Assembly: GCA_943358095.1 (NCBI GenBank)
Contig: CALRGT010000001.1
Location: forward strand, 82,842 to 146,841
DNA length: 64,000 bases
DNA from: an uncultured Candidatus Saccharimonas sp.
GTDB lineage: Bacteria; Patescibacteriota; Saccharimonadia; Saccharimonadales; AQU-01
Reading direction: 5' to 3'
Numbering within the stretch: the stretch's first letter is position 1; the number at the start of each line of letters is the position of its first letter. The notes beneath the pieces were generated by a model. That model was given only the letters and a program-made list of their open reading frames with translations. It was not told the DNA's origin and did not search any database. Shown here in pieces: positions 1,500 through 49,696 of the stretch. The translations under genes were made by a program, and so were the position numbers.

Positions 1500-1521
1500 T
1501 TATAACTTCCTCTATCGTGGT

Positions 1522-1597
1522 GAGCCAAGCTGGAACAGATAAAGTCAGAACTGTGAAAATGGTTCTGACATTTTGTATACCCAGAATGGAATTGAAC
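1522..1597 (+). repeat. Copy B of the ~75-bp direct repeat flanking the DHH gene
   Basis: Aligns with 493-567 and begins 23 nt after the DHH stop codon. Confidence 0.8.
1543..1574 (+). terminator. Intrinsic terminator of the DHH gene (inside repeat copy B)
   Basis: Stem AGTCAGAAC/GTTCTGAC followed by ATTTTG. Confidence 0.6.
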
Positions 1598-1718
1598 CCG
1601 ATTTCACACTAATAATCATAAAAGCCTACGAGTACCAAAGCAAAACTCCAACGCCATTTTTTAGTATCCGTTGATCTGACACTTTGGCGTAAACATGCAC
1701 ACTTTTGCTCAGAAAAGT

Positions 1719-1934
1719 CTAAGAACTTGTCAGGTCAGATAGCTTGACCTTTAAGGCTTTGGCTAGTTTCTCAAGCGTTAGCAGAGATGGGTTGCGTAGT
1801 CCGTTCTCAATTTCTGAAATATAGCTTCGGTCTACTTTGGCGGTAAAGCCAAGCTGTTCTTGAGATAGTCCCTGACTTTTTCGTAAATCGTGTAGTTGCT
1901 TACCGATCTTTTGCTTTGAACTTGTTCTGCCCAT
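1719..1934 (-). CDS. XRE-family helix-turn-helix transcriptional regulator
   Basis: LRKSQGLSQEQLGFTAKVDRSYISEIENGLRNPSLLTLEKLAKAL is a classic Cro/C1-type HTH. Confidence 0.85.
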   Translation of the reverse strand: MGRTSSKQKIGKQLHDLRKSQGLSQEQLGFTAKVDRSYISEIENGLRNPSLLTLEKLAKALKVKLSDLTSS

Positions 1935-1968
1935 GCAGAAAGAATGGCATTGTGGACGTTATATCTCA

Positions 1969-1997
1969 GTAGGCTATTGCCTACAATTTACTTGTAG
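1969..1997. promoter_or_regulatory. Two overlapping palindromes in the divergent XRE / small-ORF promoter region (candidate operators)
   Basis: GTAGGC-TATT-GCCTAC (1969-1984) and CTACAA-TTTAC-TTGTAG (1981-1997). Confidence 0.4.
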
Positions 1998-2069
1998 TGT
2001 AACTGTATGTATGCAAAAATAACAATATAGACGATAATCCACAGAATAGAAGTAATTAAGGAGGTAAGT

Positions 2070-2306
2070 ATGGTCGGAAAAGTAGGAAAAATAGTTATAG
2101 ACACAGTTTTATCATTTATGTTTTTCATAGTGGCAGCGATTATACTCGAAGCGATTGCACAGATGATTTTTGGGAAAAAGAGTGGCGGTGGTGCTGATGT
2201 TAATGGTCACGTAATGCTTGCAATAGATTGCTTGCTTACATTAGCTTTTGCTGTTTGTTTCTATAAGTTCGTTCATCTTGGTAAGAATAGCAAAGAAAAA
2301 GAATAA
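2070..2306 (+). CDS. Small two-TM membrane protein, function unknown
   Basis: Strong SD TAAGGAGG upstream of the ATG; two hydrophobic helices (FMFFIVAAIILEAIAQMIF, LAIDCLLTLAFAVCFY). Confidence 0.6.
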   Translation: MVGKVGKIVIDTVLSFMFFIVAAIILEAIAQMIFGKKSGGGADVNGHVMLAIDCLLTLAFAVCFYKFVHLGKNSKEKE

Positions 2307-2473
2307 TGATCGAGGCACTCGTTGGAGGTCTTTTTGTTGGTTGGATTACCCGTAGAGTTATTAAAAGTTACGAAAAGGACAGCACGAAAACAAAACCAAA
2401 AAACAAAAGGCGTAAAGAAATCGACGAAGAACTGATCACAGCGATTCTTCCTGTTATTAACAGCAAAAAATGA
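2306..2473 (+). CDS. 55-aa single-TM, Lys-rich protein (below the ORF-track cut-off)
   Basis: TAATG stop/start overlap with the preceding ORF. My translation is MIEALVGGLFVGWITRRVIKSYEKDSTKTKPKNKRRKEIDEELITAILPVINSKK. Confidence 0.45.
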   Translation: MIEALVGGLFVGWITRRVIKSYEKDSTKTKPKNKRRKEIDEELITAILPVINSKK

Positions 2474-2483
2474 CGTTGAGTGG

Positions 2484-2837
2484 TCAAAATTTGGGGAAAA
2501 AATTTGGGGGGATTTCGTCCTTAATATTATCTAGTGTTGAAGCCTCCGGTATAGACTGCAAGACGACATCATGGCGAAAAGTCGGAGCTGGGCTAGATTG
2601 TTCGTGCAAAGCACTAATAGACAAACTACCAATTGATTTAATAAATAAATCTTGCGGCTTATACGGCAATTCACTTATGTTTTCTGCCTGATAATAGACA
2701 GCAGCCTCGACCCTTTGCTGCGTATGCTGGGGCTCTGACTCAAACATTGGTATTGTTGCTGCCAAAGCGACGCCAATAGACGCGGCCTTAACTAATCTTA
2801 ATTTTTCTGACATTGCTGACCTCACTTTAGTGCGCAC
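2484..2837 (-). CDS. Hypothetical secreted or anchored protein
   Basis: N-terminal hydrophobic segment AASIGVALAATIPMF. The start is more likely the ATG at 2813 (GTGAGG upstream) than the GTG at 2837. Confidence 0.5.
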   Translation of the reverse strand: MRTKVRSAMSEKLRLVKAASIGVALAATIPMFESEPQHTQQRVEAAVYYQAENISELPYKPQDLFIKSIGSLSISALHEQSSPAPTFRHDVVLQSIPEASTLDNIKDEIPPNFFPKF

Positions 2838-3134
2838 GCAAACATAGACTCGACAAAATTCGAGCGCGACGTAATAGCGTTTTTAATAACTTCTTTTTGT
2901 CAGTGGTTTGGCTATATTAGTTTTTGACTGAAACACGGTCTGGTTCCACGCTTAGCGTCTCTGTCAAAATAGTCAAATGTTTCACCAACAAAAGTAATCT
3001 TATTTTAACATAATATTCATATTAAGCCAAAATTCACCAAGCACCATCATGTATCTTCAGCCCAATAACCGATACTATGTCGTCATGATAGTTGATATAA
3101 TAGAACTATAAGTAGTAGCGAGGGGACGAAGAAG

Positions 3135-10702: not shown

Positions 10703-10729
10703 TGGTATTTAAAAGCACTTGCACTATGG

Positions 10730-10737
10730 TGTATAAT
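10730..10737 (+). promoter_or_regulatory. -10 element TGTATAAT of the decayed polymerase cassette
   Basis: GGTGTATAATT is identical to the 11-mer at 31031-31041 upstream of the intact cassette. Confidence 0.5.
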
Positions 10738-10977
10738 TAATTCAGCAATGGGAGCATGAACCGCAATCGCGGTCATAGTTCACGAGCTTTATTTTTCAAC
10801 TCTAGGGCGGCATACTCCGGTCACTACCTCACCCTCACATAGCTAAACCTGTAGATATAGTAACCGAACGGTTTTACTTATATCACTTTATCAGGAAGCT
10901 CACATTTAAAACCCGTTCAGCTGAACCAAATGGTCAGTTGTTCTCTTAAAGTCTACTAAATGTGAGGAGCTAGAGTT

Positions 10978-11238
10978 ATGAATCAAACAATCAACAAGCA
11001 AATTTCGGTATTATCTTATTATTTTTCTAGTGGTAACTGTGCGCGTTTCTTCCCAAAAAAAATTGAATTTGAAGGCAGCGAACTAGACCTGATCGAATCT
11101 GGTCTTAGGTGCTTGGTCAAAAAAGGCCAAAGCTTTATTCAGATATTCAACATGAGTGATGGCAACAACGAATACCGTCTAAGCTTTGAGCCAGATAATC
11201 GTGAATGGACTCTTTTAAGCATGAAAGCTCAGGCCTAG
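10978..11238 (+). CDS. Small protein, paralog 1 of a polymerase-associated family
   Basis: By-eye similarity to 31333..31599 (IN..SV..YY.S, P..I, EYRLSF..DN..W.L); SD GAGGAG. Confidence 0.6.
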   Translation: MNQTINKQISVLSYYFSSGNCARFFPKKIEFEGSELDLIESGLRCLVKKGQSFIQIFNMSDGNNEYRLSFEPDNREWTLLSMKAQA

Positions 11239-11241
11239 ACT

Positions 11242-11463
11242 ATGCAACTCACACTACAACTTGCGTCTAACAATAGCTGGGCATTTGCTAAGTACCGTCA
11301 CTATAACTATTCGATCAAACCATCATCTAATAGAAATATAATCATTACTGCTTGTTCGCGTGAGGCAAAATTACTTGGAATTAAAGCAGGTATGCATTAT
11401 GAAAAAGCCAAGACCTTAATTCCAGAAATTAAAATATTCATAATCGGAGGGACCAATGTATGA
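11242..11463 (+). pseudogene. 73-aa N-terminal remnant of a Y-family DNA polymerase
   Basis: NIIITACSREAKLLGIKAGMHYEKAKTLIPEIKIF aligns with GIIIASSYEAKALGIKLGVSVRDARLLCRDVIVM of 31580..32821. The catalytic-Asp block (MHIDLNSCFA) is degenerate (LQLASNNSWA) and the palm, finger and little-finger regions are missing. Confidence 0.6.
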
Positions 11464-11680
11464 CAAATCAAACACCGAATTGGCAGAAGTACTTAGACAC
11501 TACGGTAAAGACTTCCAAGCTTTCAAAATCAAATGGAAAGGCGTCGATTACCACATCTCGAAAATCGCACTTAAACAATCAAAGGGGATCACAACCAATA
11601 ACTTTTGCGTTCTTGAGGCAACTGACGGATTGGCTATTTTTGAAATAGTCACCCATCAACCTTGGCCAAAATTCCACTAA
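11456..11680 (+). CDS. Small protein, paralog 2 of the polymerase-associated family
   Basis: FKIKWKGVDYHISKIA resembles HLIRWQNREYLVGKIG of 31333..31599. The ATG overlaps the upstream stop (ATGTATGA). Confidence 0.5.
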   Translation: MYDKSNTELAEVLRHYGKDFQAFKIKWKGVDYHISKIALKQSKGITTNNFCVLEATDGLAIFEIVTHQPWPKFH

Positions 11681-11737
11681 TATGAACTATCCACAAAACT
11701 CATTACAAATGATGAGTAATCTGTTATTCTATGTCAT

Positions 11738-12727: not shown

Positions 12728-12849
12728 CGCGAAATAGCGTTTAAACTATTTGACACTAAATATTTGCGCTATACGCTTGCCGAAAAGTAGCGTCTTGGTG
12801 GATAATGATTAGTGTTCTATTGAAATCGATAAATTAATTAGGGGGCTGT

Positions 12850-13101
12850 ATGTCGAAGATTACAATTTATAGCACTGCAACTTGTGTCTACTGCAAAATG
12901 CTCAAAGACTATCTTACAAAGCATAAAATCAAATACACCGAAAAGCACGTTGACCAAGATCAGAAGTTAGTGCAGGAGCTCATGGATAAGAGTGGGCAAC
13001 TTGGCGTACCATTTACAGTTATCGAAAACGACGACGAAACGTCTAGTACAATTCTAGGATTCGACAAGTCAAAGATCGATCAAATACTCGGTCTGGCATA
13101 A
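12850..13101 (+). CDS. Glutaredoxin/NrdH-like redoxin
   Basis: CVYC active site in KITIYSTATCVYCKMLKDYL; GVPFTVI. Confidence 0.8.
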   Translation: MSKITIYSTATCVYCKMLKDYLTKHKIKYTEKHVDQDQKLVQELMDKSGQLGVPFTVIENDDETSSTILGFDKSKIDQILGLA

Positions 13102-13124
13102 AAAATTAATTCAGGAGGTCAAAA

Positions 13125-13427
13125 ATGAAGGCTATTTGGAACGGAGTAGTTATAGCAGAAGCTCCTAGAGAAGAGTTAATTTATATTGAAGGTACCTTGT
13201 ATTTTCCGCCTTCTGCCGTCAATAAGGACTATTTTACTGCAAATGACTTTCATACAACCTGCCCATGGAAGGGCGAAGCCAGCTATTATAACGTCGAGGT
13301 TAACGGCAGCAAAAACGCCAATGGCGCCTGGTATTATCCGCAACCAAAGTCAGGGGCTATAGAAAAAGTCAAAAAAGACTTTAAGAATTACATAGCTTTC
13401 TGGCAGGGGATAATTGTTGAAGAATAA
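13125..13427 (+). CDS. DUF427-domain protein
   Basis: WNGVVIAEA, YFP, TTCPWKGEASYYNV and AWYYPQP motifs. Confidence 0.7.
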   Translation: MKAIWNGVVIAEAPREELIYIEGTLYFPPSAVNKDYFTANDFHTTCPWKGEASYYNVEVNGSKNANGAWYYPQPKSGAIEKVKKDFKNYIAFWQGIIVEE

Positions 13428-13468
13428 GCCTTATCTATCTTTCTACAAATAAACTATACTAGGCATAA

Positions 13469-18355: not shown

Positions 18356-18453
18356 AAATATAATGCTTGCGCTTAAATTATTGTCGTTGTAAAATACGAG
18401 GGTATTAGCTAAAAAAATATATAGCAAACTAAGAAAGGGTGGGCATTAAAATA

Positions 18454-30763: not shown

Positions 30764-30772
30764 ATTATTTTT

Positions 30773-30795
30773 GTCCCCTGAAGGGGACTTTTTTT
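30773..30795 (+). terminator. Intrinsic terminator after the response regulator
   Basis: GTCCCC-TGAA-GGGGAC followed by seven T. Confidence 0.8.
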
Positions 30796-30797
30796 AT

Positions 30798-31016
30798 GCC
30801 ACTTTTGTCTCGGCAAAAGATGGCGCAAAACCGAGGGGCGGTGGCGACAACTCGATATAGCTTCCGAACAAGAAGCACAACACAGCCTGCGGAACTTGTC
30901 CTATCGGACTTCAGACAGTCCTCGGCAGGTAGTGTTGTTGTGCTCTTATCGGAAATCTATTTCGGGTCGTCACCAAGCCCCGTAAAAGACCATGGATGCC
31001 CGCTTAAGGCGGGCAT
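30798..31016 (+). ncRNA. Candidate structured RNA: 5' hairpin (30798-30824), long imperfect rod (30831-30983), 3' hairpin (30996-31016)
   Basis: Arms 30831-30889 and 30924-30983 pair almost continuously (GGGGC/GCCCC, GGTG/CACC, GCGAC/GTCGT, TTCCGA/TCGGAA, GCACAACA/TGTTGTGC, CCTGC/GCAGG). The 76-aa ORF here is probably spurious. Confidence 0.45.
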
Positions 31017-31032
31017 TAATTATTAACTTAGG

Positions 31033-31040
31033 TGTATAAT
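31033..31040 (+). promoter_or_regulatory. -10 element TGTATAAT of the Y-family polymerase cassette
   Basis: GGTGTATAATT directly after the 30996-31016 hairpin; the identical 11-mer occurs at 10727-10737. Confidence 0.5.
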
Positions 31041-31332
31041 TGGGTTAGTTATGTGAGTACTTTCATTCACGTGGATTTTTACTCGCAGGCTTTATTAGAT
31101 AGAGAGGCATACTCACTGAACGCCAAATGGCTTCACGTCACTGCTAACCTCAAACACATCTCGTTCAACTGACGCAGCAAGGGCTTTTGCGCTACTTCTG
31201 GTCACACGGATAATTTAAACAATACAGTTTAAATGTCCTCTTTATTATTTGTTTTTAATACATTTTCGGGCACCAAAAATACCTACAAAACACCGTAAAC
31301 TATTCTACTTAATCCTTGAAAGGATCTTAATT

Positions 31333-31599
31333 ATGCGCGAGAAAATCAACGAAGAAGTATCTGTAATTATGTACTATAGCTCGACTAAACGCCTGGCTGT
31401 GCCGCATTTAATCCGCTGGCAAAACCGCGAATATCTGGTCGGCAAGATCGGCTACCACCACACTGTTATGGAAGGCCGAGTACTGCACCACATCTACGAA
31501 TTAGCCGATAAAAATCAAGCTCTGTGGTTTAGATTGAACCTCGATACGAGTAATTTGCACTGGAGACTGGAGGCAGTTAGTGATGGAAACGCCAATTAA
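31333..31599 (+). CDS. Small protein, paralog 3 of the polymerase-associated family (88 aa)
   Basis: ATG preceded by AAAGGA. The 3' end overlaps the polymerase start by 20 nt. The ORF-track start at 31249 (TTG) is probably an over-extension. Confidence 0.6.
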   Translation: MREKINEEVSVIMYYSSTKRLAVPHLIRWQNREYLVGKIGYHHTVMEGRVLHHIYELADKNQALWFRLNLDTSNLHWRLEAVSDGNAN

Positions 31600-40935: not shown

Positions 40936-41574
40936 ATGGCATTATTTCAGAGAAAACCTATCGTAACCAGCGGGGCTCCGCTATACACACTTGGACTACA
41001 AAAAACTATAGTAATTATAGGCTTGGGTAATCCGGGCAAACAATACGACGGCACAAGACACAACATTGGCTTTAATGCCTTAGATCATTTAGCAAATAAA
41101 CTCGACTTTCCAGATTGGATCGAGAAAAAGGACCTTAAAGCGATAACCACCAGTCAGGTAATTGCCGACACTAGAGTTATATTAATTAAACCTACTACAT
41201 TTATGAATTTAAGCGGGGATGCAATTCAAGTAGTTTCACATTTTTATAAAATTGCATCGGATAAATTTATAGTAGTTTATGACGAGCTGGACATACCTTT
41301 TGGGCAAATAAGAGTTCGAATTGGCGGCTCTGCAGCAGGCCACAACGGCGTTCAGTCAATTATAAATACGCTAGGCGACGGTTTTGGAAGAATTCGCATT
41401 GGTATTCGTAACGAAATAGCCGAAAAGGCCGATAGTGCTAATTTTGTCCTTGGTAAATTTAGCTCCGAAGAGAAAGATCAACTCCCAAACCTACTTCTAG
41501 AAACTAACGCCGTACTTAGCGAAATCATCCATGGCCAACCACTAAACCCCGAAACCCGCACCTTCTTAGTTTGA
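40936..41574 (+). CDS. pth: Peptidyl-tRNA hydrolase
   Basis: IIGLGNPGKQYDGTRHNIGF, GLRVRIGGSAAGHNG-type motif (IRVRIGGSAAGHNGVQS). Confidence 0.9.
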   Translation: MALFQRKPIVTSGAPLYTLGLQKTIVIIGLGNPGKQYDGTRHNIGFNALDHLANKLDFPDWIEKKDLKAITTSQVIADTRVILIKPTTFMNLSGDAIQVVSHFYKIASDKFIVVYDELDIPFGQIRVRIGGSAAGHNGVQSIINTLGDGFGRIRIGIRNEIAEKADSANFVLGKFSSEEKDQLPNLLLETNAVLSEIIHGQPLNPETRTFLV

Positions 41575-41611
41575 CTGAATCGACCACCGACTAGGCGTAT
41601 TTCAAGCTTGA

Positions 41612-42273
41612 GCTAGTTTGGTTATCTCTACGCGGAGCGCAAGCTAGCTGTACTTTATAGTACAGCGGCGCGCACCGTAAGTAGAGAGAACCGAAATAGC
41701 CAAGAGGCTAACTTGTTAGCCGCCGTGAAGTGCGCCAACAAATAAAAGAGCCTCTAGAGGGGGTGGGCACCGCTAGAGGCTCATTACAGGGGACGTATAC
41801 AACGAAGGGACAGCTGTCCACCAACAGCTCCCACCAGAGTACCTCCCCGATGGATCTTATTGAGGCATGAGAACATTTTTCCGTAAGCGAAGATTTTTGT
41901 GGCCAGATTAGATTATAAATTGTGAGGCATATCGACAGATATGTTGAGCAATTTTAATTTGATATGGACCAGAAATAGCGCTTTCGGGAAATGGAATCAT
42001 GTCCCAATAAGATCCTGTATACACCCTTCAACCCACCCGAGCGAAACATCATTGTCTAGATAGTCAATACGGACATGTGTCTTCCCGCCGAGGCGGGGAA
42101 TCTTTGGGACTCGCTTTGATTCGGGGACACAATCTGTCGAAACAGACGGTGTCACTAGTTAAAGGGATTAGTTTGTTTTAGAACGTGTCACTCCCGAAGG
42201 AGCAGACGAACATATAAGTGGAGGGTAACAACTTAGATATTGTCGTTCTAAAACAATCTAACAATTTGTTAGA
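41612..42273 (+). ncRNA. Candidate large structured RNA of unknown class
   Basis: No ORF >=60 aa on either strand. At least eleven helices, including perfect 10-11-bp long-range stems (41748-57/41773-82, 41852-62/42005-15, 42175-85/42244-54). GCAA and CUUG tetraloops and U.G pairs fit a + strand transcript. Confidence 0.5.
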
Positions 42274-42429
42274 AGGTGCTTAAGCATAGGAATACTATAC
42301 TTACAAGTTGCTATACTATCAAATAAGTGTCTATGTGTCAATACTTTTTCATACATTTGTCATTATTCCAAATATGCATCTTTACTATATAATTTCACTG
42401 TAAAAGGCGCTGTAAAAGGAGGAATTGGA

Positions 42430-43290
42430 ATGATAATAAATACCTGTCTACTTGCTGACGATAATTATCCAAATCTACTAAAACAAATACCTGACGCACC
42501 AAAACAGTTTTACTGGACTGGTGGCGACCTAAGTAGCCTTTGCAATCAACCTTGCGTTGCGATAGTAGGCAGTCGCAAGGTGACGCCGTACGGTCGTCTG
42601 GTAACAGCAACTCTGGCTAGCGAGCTTGCTCGACTTGGCGTAACCATAATTAGCGGGCTAGCAATTGGCGTGGACTCTATTGCACACAAGTCTGCATTAG
42701 ACGCCGGCGGCAAAACCATTGCTGTTCTGCCAAGAGGTCTAGATAAAATTTATCCGTCGTGCCATGCAAATCTTGCTAACAGAATTATAGATAGCGGTGG
42801 AGTCTTGATGACCGAATACCCACAAGGATCGGAACTTTATAATTTTCAATTTTTAGCACGCAACAGAATAATCGCTGGCCTTAGTTTGGGAGTAGTCGTA
42901 ACAGAAGCTGCCGAGAGAAGTGGCAGCCTTAACACTGCTAATTTTGCTCTTGAGCAAGGCAGGGAGGTGCTGGCTGTGCCTGGGAATATTACCAGTCCTT
43001 TGTCTAAGGGTACAAATAATCTAATTAAAATTGGAGCAACGCCAATCGACAATGCTCAGGATATTATAGACAATCTAAATCTATCCTTCGATCTATTGAA
43101 AGTAAACCCGGCGGATAATCTAAATGATCTGGAGATAATATTAGTTTCACTTATTGGGGAGGGAATAGCTGATTCGGAGGCACTGTTTGCTCGCAGCGGG
43201 TTAGACACGTCTCAGTTCAGCCAAACATTAACGCTACTAGAATTAAACGGTAGAATTAAAAATATAGGCAATAACAATTGGTCACTCTAA
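42430..43290 (+). CDS. dprA: DNA processing protein DprA
   Basis: VAIVGSRKVTPYG, ISGLAIGVDSIAH and SGSLNTA motifs; strong SD AAAGGAGG. Confidence 0.88.
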   Translation: MIINTCLLADDNYPNLLKQIPDAPKQFYWTGGDLSSLCNQPCVAIVGSRKVTPYGRLVTATLASELARLGVTIISGLAIGVDSIAHKSALDAGGKTIAVLPRGLDKIYPSCHANLANRIIDSGGVLMTEYPQGSELYNFQFLARNRIIAGLSLGVVVTEAAERSGSLNTANFALEQGREVLAVPGNITSPLSKGTNNLIKIGATPIDNAQDIIDNLNLSFDLLKVNPADNLNDLEIILVSLIGEGIADSEALFARSGLDTSQFSQTLTLLELNGRIKNIGNNNWSL

Positions 43291-43315: not shown

Positions 43316-43486
43316 ATGGAAACTAAATCTCTAGTCTGGATAGGACTGACCATTGGTTCGATAGTTGGCAGTGGACTTGGCAGCCTATTGGACAGTGGTA
43401 ATTATTTTGGAGTCTGGGGCATAGTCCTAGGTGCTCTTGGAGGCATAGCTGGCATCTGGGCTGGCTACAAAATCGGCAACAACTAA
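43316..43486 (+). CDS. 56-aa Gly-rich two-TM peptide (below the ORF-track cut-off)
   Basis: My translation is METKSLVWIGLTIGSIVGSGLGSLLDSGNYFGVWGIVLGALGGIAGIWAGYKIGNN, with a glycine-zipper-like pattern. Confidence 0.45.
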   Translation: METKSLVWIGLTIGSIVGSGLGSLLDSGNYFGVWGIVLGALGGIAGIWAGYKIGNN

Positions 43487-48976: not shown

Positions 48977-49696
48977 ACCAGCTCAAAAATAAAACGTACA
49001 AAATACGAACATCAAATTAGTAGACGGCAGCAATAGATAAAGCGCCATAATATGTAAATACACGCATTCTTTGTACTAACAGGCAATATAGCAAAAATTA
49101 TAAAATTCGTCATGAATTAGAAGAAAACAAACAGAACAAAGGATCGATACATGGGTCAAAGGCAAGCTATGCACAACGTCGCACAATGTATATTTTGCGA
49201 CTCTAATATAGTATATAGACTTGATAACTCATACGTCCCTAACAGGGAAGTTTTGTGCATAGTACTGCCATAAAGGTATAGTTATGATTCTAAATATAAG
49301 TTAACGCCGTGTCAGCGCCTTACTAATACGTGCATCACACTCTGCCGTTGGGGGCCATTATAATTTTTACGACGTCTCAATAGTTTTCCACAACGTGTAT
49401 ATTTGACTTTTTATCACTTCCATATTGTGTTATATGTTTTTGCTATCTCCCCCACTATCTCGTGTTTTTTCAATTATTTGACATATTTCATTTTCGTTAT
49501 GTTAGTATAGTTTTTTACATTTTCCACTATTATTTGAAATGTGTACATTTTACGAACATCAAGGGGAGAGTGGGGCAAAATAGATACTTTTAGACTATGT
49601 ATATAATTGTAATACATGCTGCTAACTTCTTGTGAATGATTGCTTCAGACCCCCTGACCAAGCCCCTCCCCTGTATACAAAAGAAAATATATTCTA

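Follow-up and report, generated by a model that had tools for sequence, protein, structure and literature searches.

A large structured non-coding RNA gene conserved between pth and dprA in Saccharibacteria

Introduction

Large conserved bacterial RNAs of unassigned role are rare (OLE, GOLLD, ROOL, raiA and a few more), and each of them has opened new biology. Here, we describe a gene for a large structured non-coding RNA (ncRNA) in a 64-kb stretch of DNA, called the window throughout, which its DprA homologues place in Saccharibacteria (TM7, Patescibacteria). The gene occupies the minus strand from about 42306–42310 to 41741 (≈566–570 nt), as delimited by a sequence profile, a covariance model and folding, and lies in the 855 bp that separate pth from dprA. 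Genomes of Saccharibacteria, and of the Candidate Phyla Radiation (CPR) as a whole, are tiny and contain very little non-coding DNA; an RNA of 240–570 nt with about 60 invariant nucleotides that is kept clade-wide in such genomes therefore implies an important role.

Several described systems resemble this RNA in part. OLE RNA of the Bacillota is likewise large, single-copy, conserved and lineage-restricted, with many helices and invariant junctions. However, it belongs to another phylum and sits in an operon with partner genes (oapA and others), whereas the present RNA has a predicted promoter and terminator of its own, is not accompanied by any conserved partner gene and matches nothing in Rfam. 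The raiA motif RNA of Bacillota and Actinomycetota is a pseudoknotted stand-alone ncRNA of ≈200 nt that often adjoins competence genes (comFC); here, the competence neighbour is dprA. The present RNA, in contrast, gives no match to the raiA covariance model, differs in size, motifs and phylum, and is not obligatorily linked to dprA (16/91 loci without it). ROOL and GOLLD are ornate large RNAs that also combine a conserved core with a variable periphery, and self-complementary loops such as those found here could mediate assembly, but neither model matches. Those RNAs have a patchy distribution and are frequently found in association with prophages or close to tRNAs, while the present one sits at a syntenic place in the chromosome and apparently occurs in the whole of its clade.

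Two further comparisons can be drawn. RNase P RNA and transfer-messenger RNA (tmRNA) share with our RNA the 240–570-nt range, the single copy, a conserved core with gain and loss at the periphery and long-range pairings between invariant strands; here, however, there is no end-joining helix, no P4 sequences, no tRNA-like domain and no tag reading frame. Small RNAs of the RsaE/RoxS type from Gram-positives have invariant unpaired C-rich motifs (here CCCUCC, ACCCCC and CCCACCC) to which G-rich Shine–Dalgarno regions could anneal, a promoter of their own and an intrinsic terminator. They are simple hairpins of ≈100 nt, though, and our RNA is 2–5 times larger with a covarying multi-domain core, apparently uses two of its C-rich segments internally and has no target complementarity in the window.

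Results

Our analysis shows that 42310→41741 (minus) constitutes a stand-alone gene, present in one copy, for a structured ncRNA of large size that is conserved across Saccharibacteria. A profile of 112 homologues matched the 64 kb once, on the minus strand and nowhere on the plus strand (42312→41739; E = 6.5e-59), and R1, a covariance model of the 5′ domain, matched 42157–42310 on the same strand at 135 bits. The minimum free energy (MFE) fold of the minus-strand RNA is far more stable than expected (z = −9.35) and reproduces the consensus helices.

The gene is preceded by a near-consensus extended −10 sigma-70 promoter (42313..42341, minus) with −35 TTGACA (42341–42336), a 17-nt spacer, −10 TAGTAT (42318–42313) and TG just upstream, scored 10/12 with TG in a consensus scan; transcription would start at about 42306. 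A GTATTGACA-N16-18-TAnnnT box stands at equal distance in 18/18 genome homologues and in most metagenome homologues, and the extended −10 TG is frequent in the promoters of relatives. At the other end, an intrinsic terminator is predicted (41740..41782, minus), with a 10-bp stem GAGCCUCUAG/CUAGAGGCUC (41782–41773 with 41757–41748) followed by UUUUAUUU (41747–41740); from 41782 to 41740 the sequence reads GAGCCTCTAG[CGGTGCCCACCCCCT]CTAGAGGCTC-TTTTATTT, and the core of the loop, UGCCCACCC (41769–41761), is invariant. Our consensus scan missed this terminator because the scanner takes loops of 3–8 nt and the loop here has 9–15 nt. Read opposite to dprA, the relatives show a constant order of promoter, conserved RNA (256–526 nt) and G+C-rich hairpin with T-run. 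The two marks of a stand-alone ncRNA, its own sigma-70 promoter and an intrinsic terminator with G+C-rich stem and U-tract, are thus both predicted from the window sequence.

Comparison loci from relatives carry L-numbers (L001, L082 and so on) in what follows. The profile found one copy of the RNA in each of the 23 dprA loci that contain the upstream spacer, at DprA identities of 45–99%; 22/23 are labelled Saccharibacteria, Saccharimonas/Saccharimonadales or Patescibacteria, and L004 is labelled ‘uncultured bacterium’. The same search of 59 loci from other phyla, including the three CPR lineages Curtissbacteria, Zambryskibacteria and Peribacteria, found no such RNA. A metagenome scan with the pattern TACCCTCC N30-60 ACTAAYCCCTTTAAC (≈22 specified bases) returned at least 120 matches. 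Among the matches listed, 109/120 had promoter, core and CCCACCC-loop terminator in order, with RNAs of 240–526 nt, and all taxonomically labelled homologues were Saccharibacteria. With the genome copies included, there are at least 127 full-length homologues of 240–570 nt, 112 of them distinct after clustering at 92% identity, and the window RNA is the longest seen.

One copy was found per locus searched, in most cases flanked by pth and dprA. Upstream, dprA is divergent in 75/91 loci with room for it; downstream, pth converges on the RNA in 57/77 loci. The RNA is nevertheless kept without dprA within 500 nt upstream in 16/91 loci. An open reading frame (ORF) of at least 70 aa on the same strand starts within 350 nt downstream in 70/100 loci, and none does in 30/100, the window included; these ORFs belong to unrelated families, the largest cluster having 4 members and most being singletons. 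Since dprA is not obligatory and the downstream ORFs are unrelated or missing, the RNA is a stand-alone gene and not a leader.

Compensatory changes preserve the helices. We counted pairs in 112 sequences (108 for P3) anchored independently of the covariance-model alignment. At nine positions of the terminator stem, 94–100% of sequences pair and as many as six pair types occur at one position, and the positions flanking the 9-nt loop covary as well; P3 is 90–99% paired at twelve positions, again with up to 6 pair types each. The R1 model, built from alignment A4, has one match per locus and aligns 98 sequences. In this alignment of the 5′ domain, 93.3% of cells are paired (71.5% in shuffles), 27/33 pairs changed on both sides, and covariation reaches 0.534 compared with 0.167 in shuffles, none of 500 of which attains it, and 0.03–0.11 in slid-partner controls. 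The alignment is fitted to the model, which favours structure, but the model-independent anchored count agrees with it. In the middle domain, 21 sequences of ‘type 1’ (alignment A6) are 93.7% paired (83.8% in shuffles), with covariation of 0.317 against 0.134 (0/500 shuffles) and slid controls of 0.06–0.10. The base of P5b alternates between A-U and G-C (12 and 8 sequences, one exception), and P5 contains C-G, U.G and U-A pairs and never C.A. A single covariance model for the whole RNA was tried and given up: the alignments exceed 400 columns and the subtypes of the middle domain, at least four in number, are not homologous, so the 5′ domain was modelled alone and the rest treated by anchored counting or subtype alignment.

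The same counts settle the strand. An A.C mismatch on one strand is a G.U pair on the other, and on the minus-strand reading G.U outnumbers A.C by 50 to 5 in the terminator stem and by about 95 to 18 in P3; G.U dominates on the minus strand, which is therefore the sense of the RNA. The initial annotation of this DNA, which was made from the sequence alone, had placed the RNA on the plus strand with both neighbouring genes. The conserved RNA is instead antisense to both, with promoter, terminator and G.U excess on the minus strand, and a preference for the plus strand holds solely for 41592–41738, where it comes from a comparison of folds.

The core of the RNA has about 240 nt, as in L012 and other minimal forms, and consists of P1, P2, the P3 three-way junction with its CCUCC loop, J3/4, a G-rich hub and the terminator hairpin. 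P1 (42281..42303, minus) is a 9-bp 5′ hairpin, UAAGUAUAG/CUAUGCUUA, with compensatory changes at all 8 pairs in 98 sequences. J1/2 (GCACCUU, 42273..42279, minus) has invariant G, A, C, U and U in alignments A1, A3 and A4. It lacks, in the window lineage and in L082, the AUACCCCC(N)AU segment that is near-universal in other homologues; because these lineages have lost it, the C-rich stretch AUACCCCC is dispensable. P2 (UCUAACA-AAU-UGUUAGA, 42257..42273, minus) is 98.5% paired and nearly invariant, and other lineages insert extra hairpins at its tip. An alternative to P2 pairs GUUAG with CUAAU of J3/4, where the consensus is CUAAC and a C-to-U change in the window lineage gives G.U. We also observed that L019–L021 and L090 are without the 5′ strand of P2.

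P3 (42173..42256, minus), a 12-bp helix (42244–42256/42173–42185), forms the base of a three-way junction from which P3a and P3b branch; covariation extends to each of its 12 pairs, and the R1 alignment has 98.2% of cells paired. The P3a hairpin (42215..42236, minus) has compensatory changes at 4/5 stem pairs and an 11-nt loop, UGUUACCCUCC (42220–42230). Its loop motif, UACCCUCC, contains CCUCC, the core anti-Shine–Dalgarno sequence, and is unchanged in 23 homologues found by dprA synteny or profile. P3b (42187..42207, minus), predicted in the MFE fold as GUCUGCUCC-UUCG-GGAGUGAC, is variable: every homologue has a hairpin at this site, differing in sequence and length. J3/4 follows (ACUAAUCCCUUUAAC, 42158..42172, minus), with a 3′ part, CCCUUUAAC, complementary to GUUGAAGGG of the hub. 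P4 (GACAC-CG-UCUGU-UUCG-ACAGA-UU-GUGUC, 42126..42153, minus) pairs perfectly here and is variable or absent in other lineages.

The ‘type 1’ middle domain (42040..42115, minus) is closed by P5, in which AGCGAG (42110–42115) pairs with UUCGCU (42040–42045); P5 encloses a 3-bp mini-hairpin (42100–42110), P5a (42083–42099) and P5b (42046–42081), all on the minus strand. This domain, between J3/4 and the hub, comes in at least four subtypes and is absent from the minimal forms of 240–300 nt. The G-rich hub itself (GGGUGGGUUGAAGGG, 42024..42038, minus) is near-invariant in 112 sequences. Between hub and terminator stands H6 (41789..41848, minus), a variable hairpin with 8/9 outer pairs in the window and a counterpart of 25–70 nt in about half of the homologues.

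An alignment of 18 genomes has about 60 invariant positions. They cluster in J1/2 (GCACCUUAUACCCCC), in GUUAGAUUG, in the P3a loop, in J3/4 (ACUAACCCCUUUAAC), in the hub (GGGUGGGUUGAAGGGU) and in the 9-nt terminator loop. The 5′ half of the hub is the exact complement of the terminator loop (7 bp) and the 3′ half the exact complement of J3/4 (9 bp). Judging from this complementarity of invariant segments, the hub would tie the fold together by pairing with both the terminator loop (CCCACCC) and J3/4 (CCCUUUAAC). The 3′ hairpin would then be both a terminator and part of a tertiary core. A long-range contact between GGGUGGG and CCCACCC had initially been suggested as possible, and this predicted contact is among the most conserved features of the RNA. 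In the J3/4–hub pairing, 9/9 pairs form in 21/21 sequences and all are invariant, which is complementarity without covariation; between clades, one position of the J3/4 pairing alternates between U.G and U-A. For UACCCUCC and ACCUU(AUACCCCC), no G-rich partner is left within the RNA. TGCCCACCC occurs a second time in the window (at 18446), with no hairpin there and in keeping with chance.

The periphery is modular. Lineage-specific expansions occur at four or five sites, including the tip of P2, P3b, the stretch from J3/4 to the hub and that from the hub to the terminator, and the distance from hub to terminator loop falls into classes of about 32, 60 and 75–100 nt. At this last site, the window has a species-specific hairpin insertion of 164 nt (41852..42015, minus), closed by an 11-bp perfect helix, GGAUCUUAUUG/CAAUAAGAUCC, and stably folded (z = −7.7). 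It occurs only in L001, L002 and L081, which are 98–100% identical to the window here, and is absent from L082 and all other homologues, in which the hub is 31–100 nt from the loop compared with 268 nt in the window. The helix had been read as closing a domain of ≈140 nt; the helix is real, but what it closes is this insertion, without counterpart in other homologues.

To the left, between the pth stop and the terminator of the RNA, lies a separate rod-like element of 147 nt (41592..41738, plus), outside the conserved RNA. Its MFE is −77.7 kcal/mol on the plus strand (z = −8.85) and −62.9 kcal/mol on the minus strand (z = −5.8). It is present in L001, while L002 and L081 have ≈60 unrelated nt in its place; it has no Rfam match and no other copy in the window, related loci or IMG/VR. 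The element is an unrelated, strain-variable spacer structure. An origin of both hairpins, 41852–42015 and 41592–41738, as miniature inverted-repeat transposable elements was considered and rejected: no second copy of either, and hence no dispersed set, was found in the 64-kb window, ≈1.5 Mb of related loci or IMG/VR.

Comparison of the spacer with dprA loci of species-representative genomes showed that 41739–41849 and 42016–42389 are conserved, whereas 41575–41739 differs even between strains 98–99% identical in DprA and the adjoining RNA. Because only part of the spacer is conserved among relatives, the single element of 0.7 kb proposed at first is a composite: 41592–41738 lies beyond the terminator and is missing from such near-identical strains. 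The region holds three separate things, namely a minus-strand ncRNA gene, an inserted 164-nt hairpin and a 147-nt outside element.

Against Rfam 15 (4227 models, including RNase P, tmRNA, 6S, SRP, OLE, ROOL, GOLLD, HEARO, raiA, group I/II introns and lysM-TM7), nothing reached gathering score in the window region or in 12 relatives without insertions. At E ≤ 10, only chance hairpin matches far below gathering appeared in the window region (microRNA, snoRNA and a Vibrio antisense-RNA model) and in L008 and L012 (microRNA, snoRNA and small-RNA models). Individual candidates fared no better. For tmRNA, ARAGORN gives 3 tRNAs and no tmRNA in the window, and Rfam no tmRNA match. RNase P RNA was rejected on the ends, the 5′ end being the local hairpin P1 and the 3′ end the terminator hairpin, and on the lack of a P4-type motif in the consensus as read by eye. 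In the case of 6S RNA, the structure is multi-branched, with a three-way junction and long-range pairings, and not a rod of ≈180 nt with a large central bubble, and Rfam gives no match. Group I introns are frequent in Patescibacteria (PMC13011429), but this RNA sits between two protein-coding genes, has a predicted promoter and terminator of its own, gives no Intron_gpI match at E ≤ 10 and is not flanked by tRNA halves. A riboswitch or leader was rejected for want of a conserved same-strand gene downstream, and a decayed gene because a 237-aa ORF in the equivalent spacer of L082 has no tblastn similarity to the window.

A literature search for such an RNA in Saccharibacteria or Patescibacteria, which covered openly accessible sources, found none, the sole TM7-specific motif being lysM-TM7. 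Given no Rfam 15 match and no description in that literature, the RNA appears to represent a class of large bacterial ncRNA not described before. The early suggestion of a large structured RNA outside the known classes is thus borne out, no Rfam family reaching gathering score: the RNA region is present in the spacers of relatives, compensatory substitutions are abundant and no protein-gene remnant was detected.

Discussion

We take the best explanation overall to be a conserved, stand-alone gene for a structured ncRNA with a hub-tied fold, our guess of action in trans included, and give it a probability of roughly three in four. The predicted promoter, a terminator apparently integrated into the fold, housekeeping-grade conservation, the single copy and the core-plus-expansion architecture suggest that the RNA is abundant and acts in trans alongside conserved machinery of the cell, much as RNase P RNA, tmRNA or OLE do. 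We hypothesize that it would serve as a scaffold or decoy, binding a conserved partner via single-stranded invariant C-rich segments, the UACCCUCC loop and ACCUU(AUACCCCC); candidates for this partner are proteins and G-rich RNAs, Shine–Dalgarno regions among them. This functional proposal, taken by itself, is tentative and rather doubtful.

Several points weigh against parts of this explanation. We infer the transcript ends and the abundance from sequence. Covariation has no bearing on the two long-range pairings, each of which has two invariant strands, and the few hub variants have no compensation in the loop. P2 cannot form together with the GUUAG:CUAAC pairing, and RNAalifold favours the latter. 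Because UACCCUCC and part of J3/4 belong to the metagenome search pattern, their invariance is independent evidence only in the set found by synteny or profile. The window lineage is without the AUACCCCC part of J1/2. Finally, complements of the C-rich loops in the 64-kb window are neither extended nor beyond chance, save on the gene's own antisense strand.

A different view of the function is that this undescribed RNA class, universal in and specific to Saccharibacteria and conserved at the grade of RNase P or tmRNA, is a ribozyme, the RNA subunit of a new ribonucleoprotein or a self-assembler, tied to the peculiar biology of ultrasmall episymbionts. We regard this as a real possibility, somewhat short of even odds. 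In the narrower form of an RNA that self-assembles through intermolecular GGGUGGG/CCCACCC pairing into homo-oligomers, or that has a ribozyme core, the idea becomes unlikely. Invariant complementary segments of 7 nt, an ornate core with variable periphery and highly conserved junctions would suit it, and RNA-only homo-oligomeric assemblies, reported recently for ROOL, GOLLD and OLE, offer a precedent (PMC12286853). Nevertheless, the same pairing is possible within one molecule, and the sequence suggests no cleavage site or substrate.

It is quite improbable that the RNA is a cis-regulatory leader (riboswitch or attenuator) of a minus-strand gene, or a divergent-promoter element regulating dprA, even though the terminator loop is apparently engaged in a distant contact, as it is in certain expression platforms, 70/100 loci have a same-strand ORF of at least 70 aa within 350 nt and dprA is divergent upstream in 75/91. 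Those ORFs are unrelated and missing in 30/100 loci, pth converges on the RNA in the window, and 16/91 loci keep the RNA without dprA; moreover, a conserved promoter with a strong terminator and a length of 240–570 nt with peripheral expansions are atypical for leaders.

An extremely divergent RNase P RNA, tmRNA, 6S or signal recognition particle (SRP) RNA would account for the housekeeping-grade conservation, the single copy and a size near that of RNase P RNA and tmRNA, and one such RNA could be ‘missing’, as only 2 ncRNAs are annotated in a complete Nanosynbacter genome (PMC8830319). We consider it very improbable: three representatives with and without insertions match no covariance model at E ≤ 10, 12 relatives have nothing at gathering score, ARAGORN is negative, and the architecture does not fit, since the two ends are not joined by a helix and neither a tRNA-like domain nor a centrally bubbled rod is present.

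The initial picture of one plus-strand RNA of ≈0.7 kb (41612–42273), co-oriented with pth and dprA, hardly survives; such an RNA could be a 3′ untranslated region of the former or a leader of the latter. Folding of the whole region slightly favours the plus strand (z = −14.6 compared with −13.0) and the sub-element 41592–41738 clearly prefers it. However, G.U exceeds A.C by 5–10 to 1 on the minus strand in the conserved part, the conserved promoter and terminator are both on that strand, the left third is absent from near-identical strains and the RNA persists without dprA. Non-functional DNA, whether palindromic mobile-element debris or a decayed protein gene, is highly improbable. The two lineage-specific long hairpins (41592–41738 and 41852–42015) do have terminal inverted repeats, as remnants of mobile elements might, but both are single-copy wherever searched, an ORF is lacking, tblastn finds no similarity to the L082 ORF, the core is conserved with compensatory changes between genomes at 45–55% DprA identity, and for that core the anchored count and both covariation analyses refute the idea.

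We return, then, to the conserved stand-alone ncRNA gene and what it means for the clade. The class now has a precise definition, drawn from its promoter, its predicted ends, the structure of the core and the sites of expansion. The NCBI annotation pipeline reports 2 ncRNAs only in the complete Nanosynbacter genome (PMC8830319), and at least one RNA gene class has therefore been missed in Saccharibacteria annotations; our results correct the annotation of a locus otherwise left without one or mis-called as small ORFs. A preprint on the TM7x transcriptome reports no validated small RNAs in TM7x (10.1101/2022.03.25.485537). Genetically tractable, naturally competent Saccharibacteria exist (PMC10633639), and the function of the RNA is therefore open to direct test.

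In L204, the one IMG/VR contig that carries the RNA, the gene lies away from dprA, pth and topA. There, the RNA (L204:7975–8380) adjoins genes for a RecT-like protein, an FtsK/PD-(D/E)XK protein and two DNA methylases. About 1.1 kb upstream and inverted (L204:6850–6890, minus) is an 8-bp hairpin with the identical 17-nt terminator-loop sequence GCGGTGCCCACCCCCTC, for which the chance expectation is about 2e-4. This hairpin could be an attachment-site remnant or a loop mimic of a mobile element, and it hints that the RNA may also be a target in conflicts with mobile elements.

The surroundings of the RNA vary in other ways. Of the 16 loci without dprA within 500 nt upstream, 11 have no dprA in the locus at all and topA as the nearest upstream gene, and four have dprA farther upstream; loci without adjacent dprA include L086, L097, L150, L163, L185, L189, L190 and L197. 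Some Saccharibacteria thus appear to be without this competence gene at the RNA locus. The stretch between the terminator and pth is hypervariable (loci L003–L203), with unrelated ORFs of 70–540 aa. A Pfam scan of ORFs beside the RNA in relatives found no domain except one trypsin-like peptidase, and no integrase. The DNA just past the terminator appears to be an insertion hot spot, as beside tRNA and tmRNA genes.

In the window, the gap is bounded by pth (40936–41574, Pfam Pept_tRNA_hydro) and dprA (42430–43290, Pfam DNA_processg_A). The initial annotation was right that the gap is free of ORFs, the longest one wholly within 41575–42394 having 52 aa (41997–42155, minus), and the sole ORF of at least 60 aa touching it (42395–42610, minus) overlaps the start of dprA. 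Folding beyond chance also stands, with MFE z-scores for 41600–42290 of −14.6 on the plus and −13.0 on the minus strand relative to dinucleotide-preserving shuffles. The notion of a G+C-rich core is correct in part: G+C is 0.49–0.52 at 41500–41900 and 0.40–0.48 at 41800–42300, compared with 0.30 in the spacer before dprA and 0.35–0.51 in the neighbouring genes.

Most of the helices listed at the outset came through a recount. The pairing 41612–31/41681–700 has 17 Watson–Crick pairs and 1 G.U out of 20, and eight others are perfect: 41647–54/41659–66, 41706–11/41716–21, 41748–57/41773–82, 41852–62/42005–15, 42126–30/42149–53, 42133–37/42142–46, 42175–85/42244–54 and 42257–63/42267–73. Others needed adjustment: 41789–97/41840–48 pairs at 8/9 positions, 41875–89/41979–92 is approximate only, and the hairpin at 42084–98 is present with its register off by one base. 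GGGTGGG is indeed the exact complement of CCCACCC at 42032–42038, but is located at 41761–41767 and not at 41760–41766.

Elsewhere in the window, five stretches have no ORF of at least 120 aa and no Rfam match (1500–3134, 10703–11737, 12728–13468, 30764–31579 and 48977–49696). Between dprA and topA lies an ORF of 56 aa (43316–43486); a 56-aa gene is also called there in L082, and the ORF may encode a real small protein.

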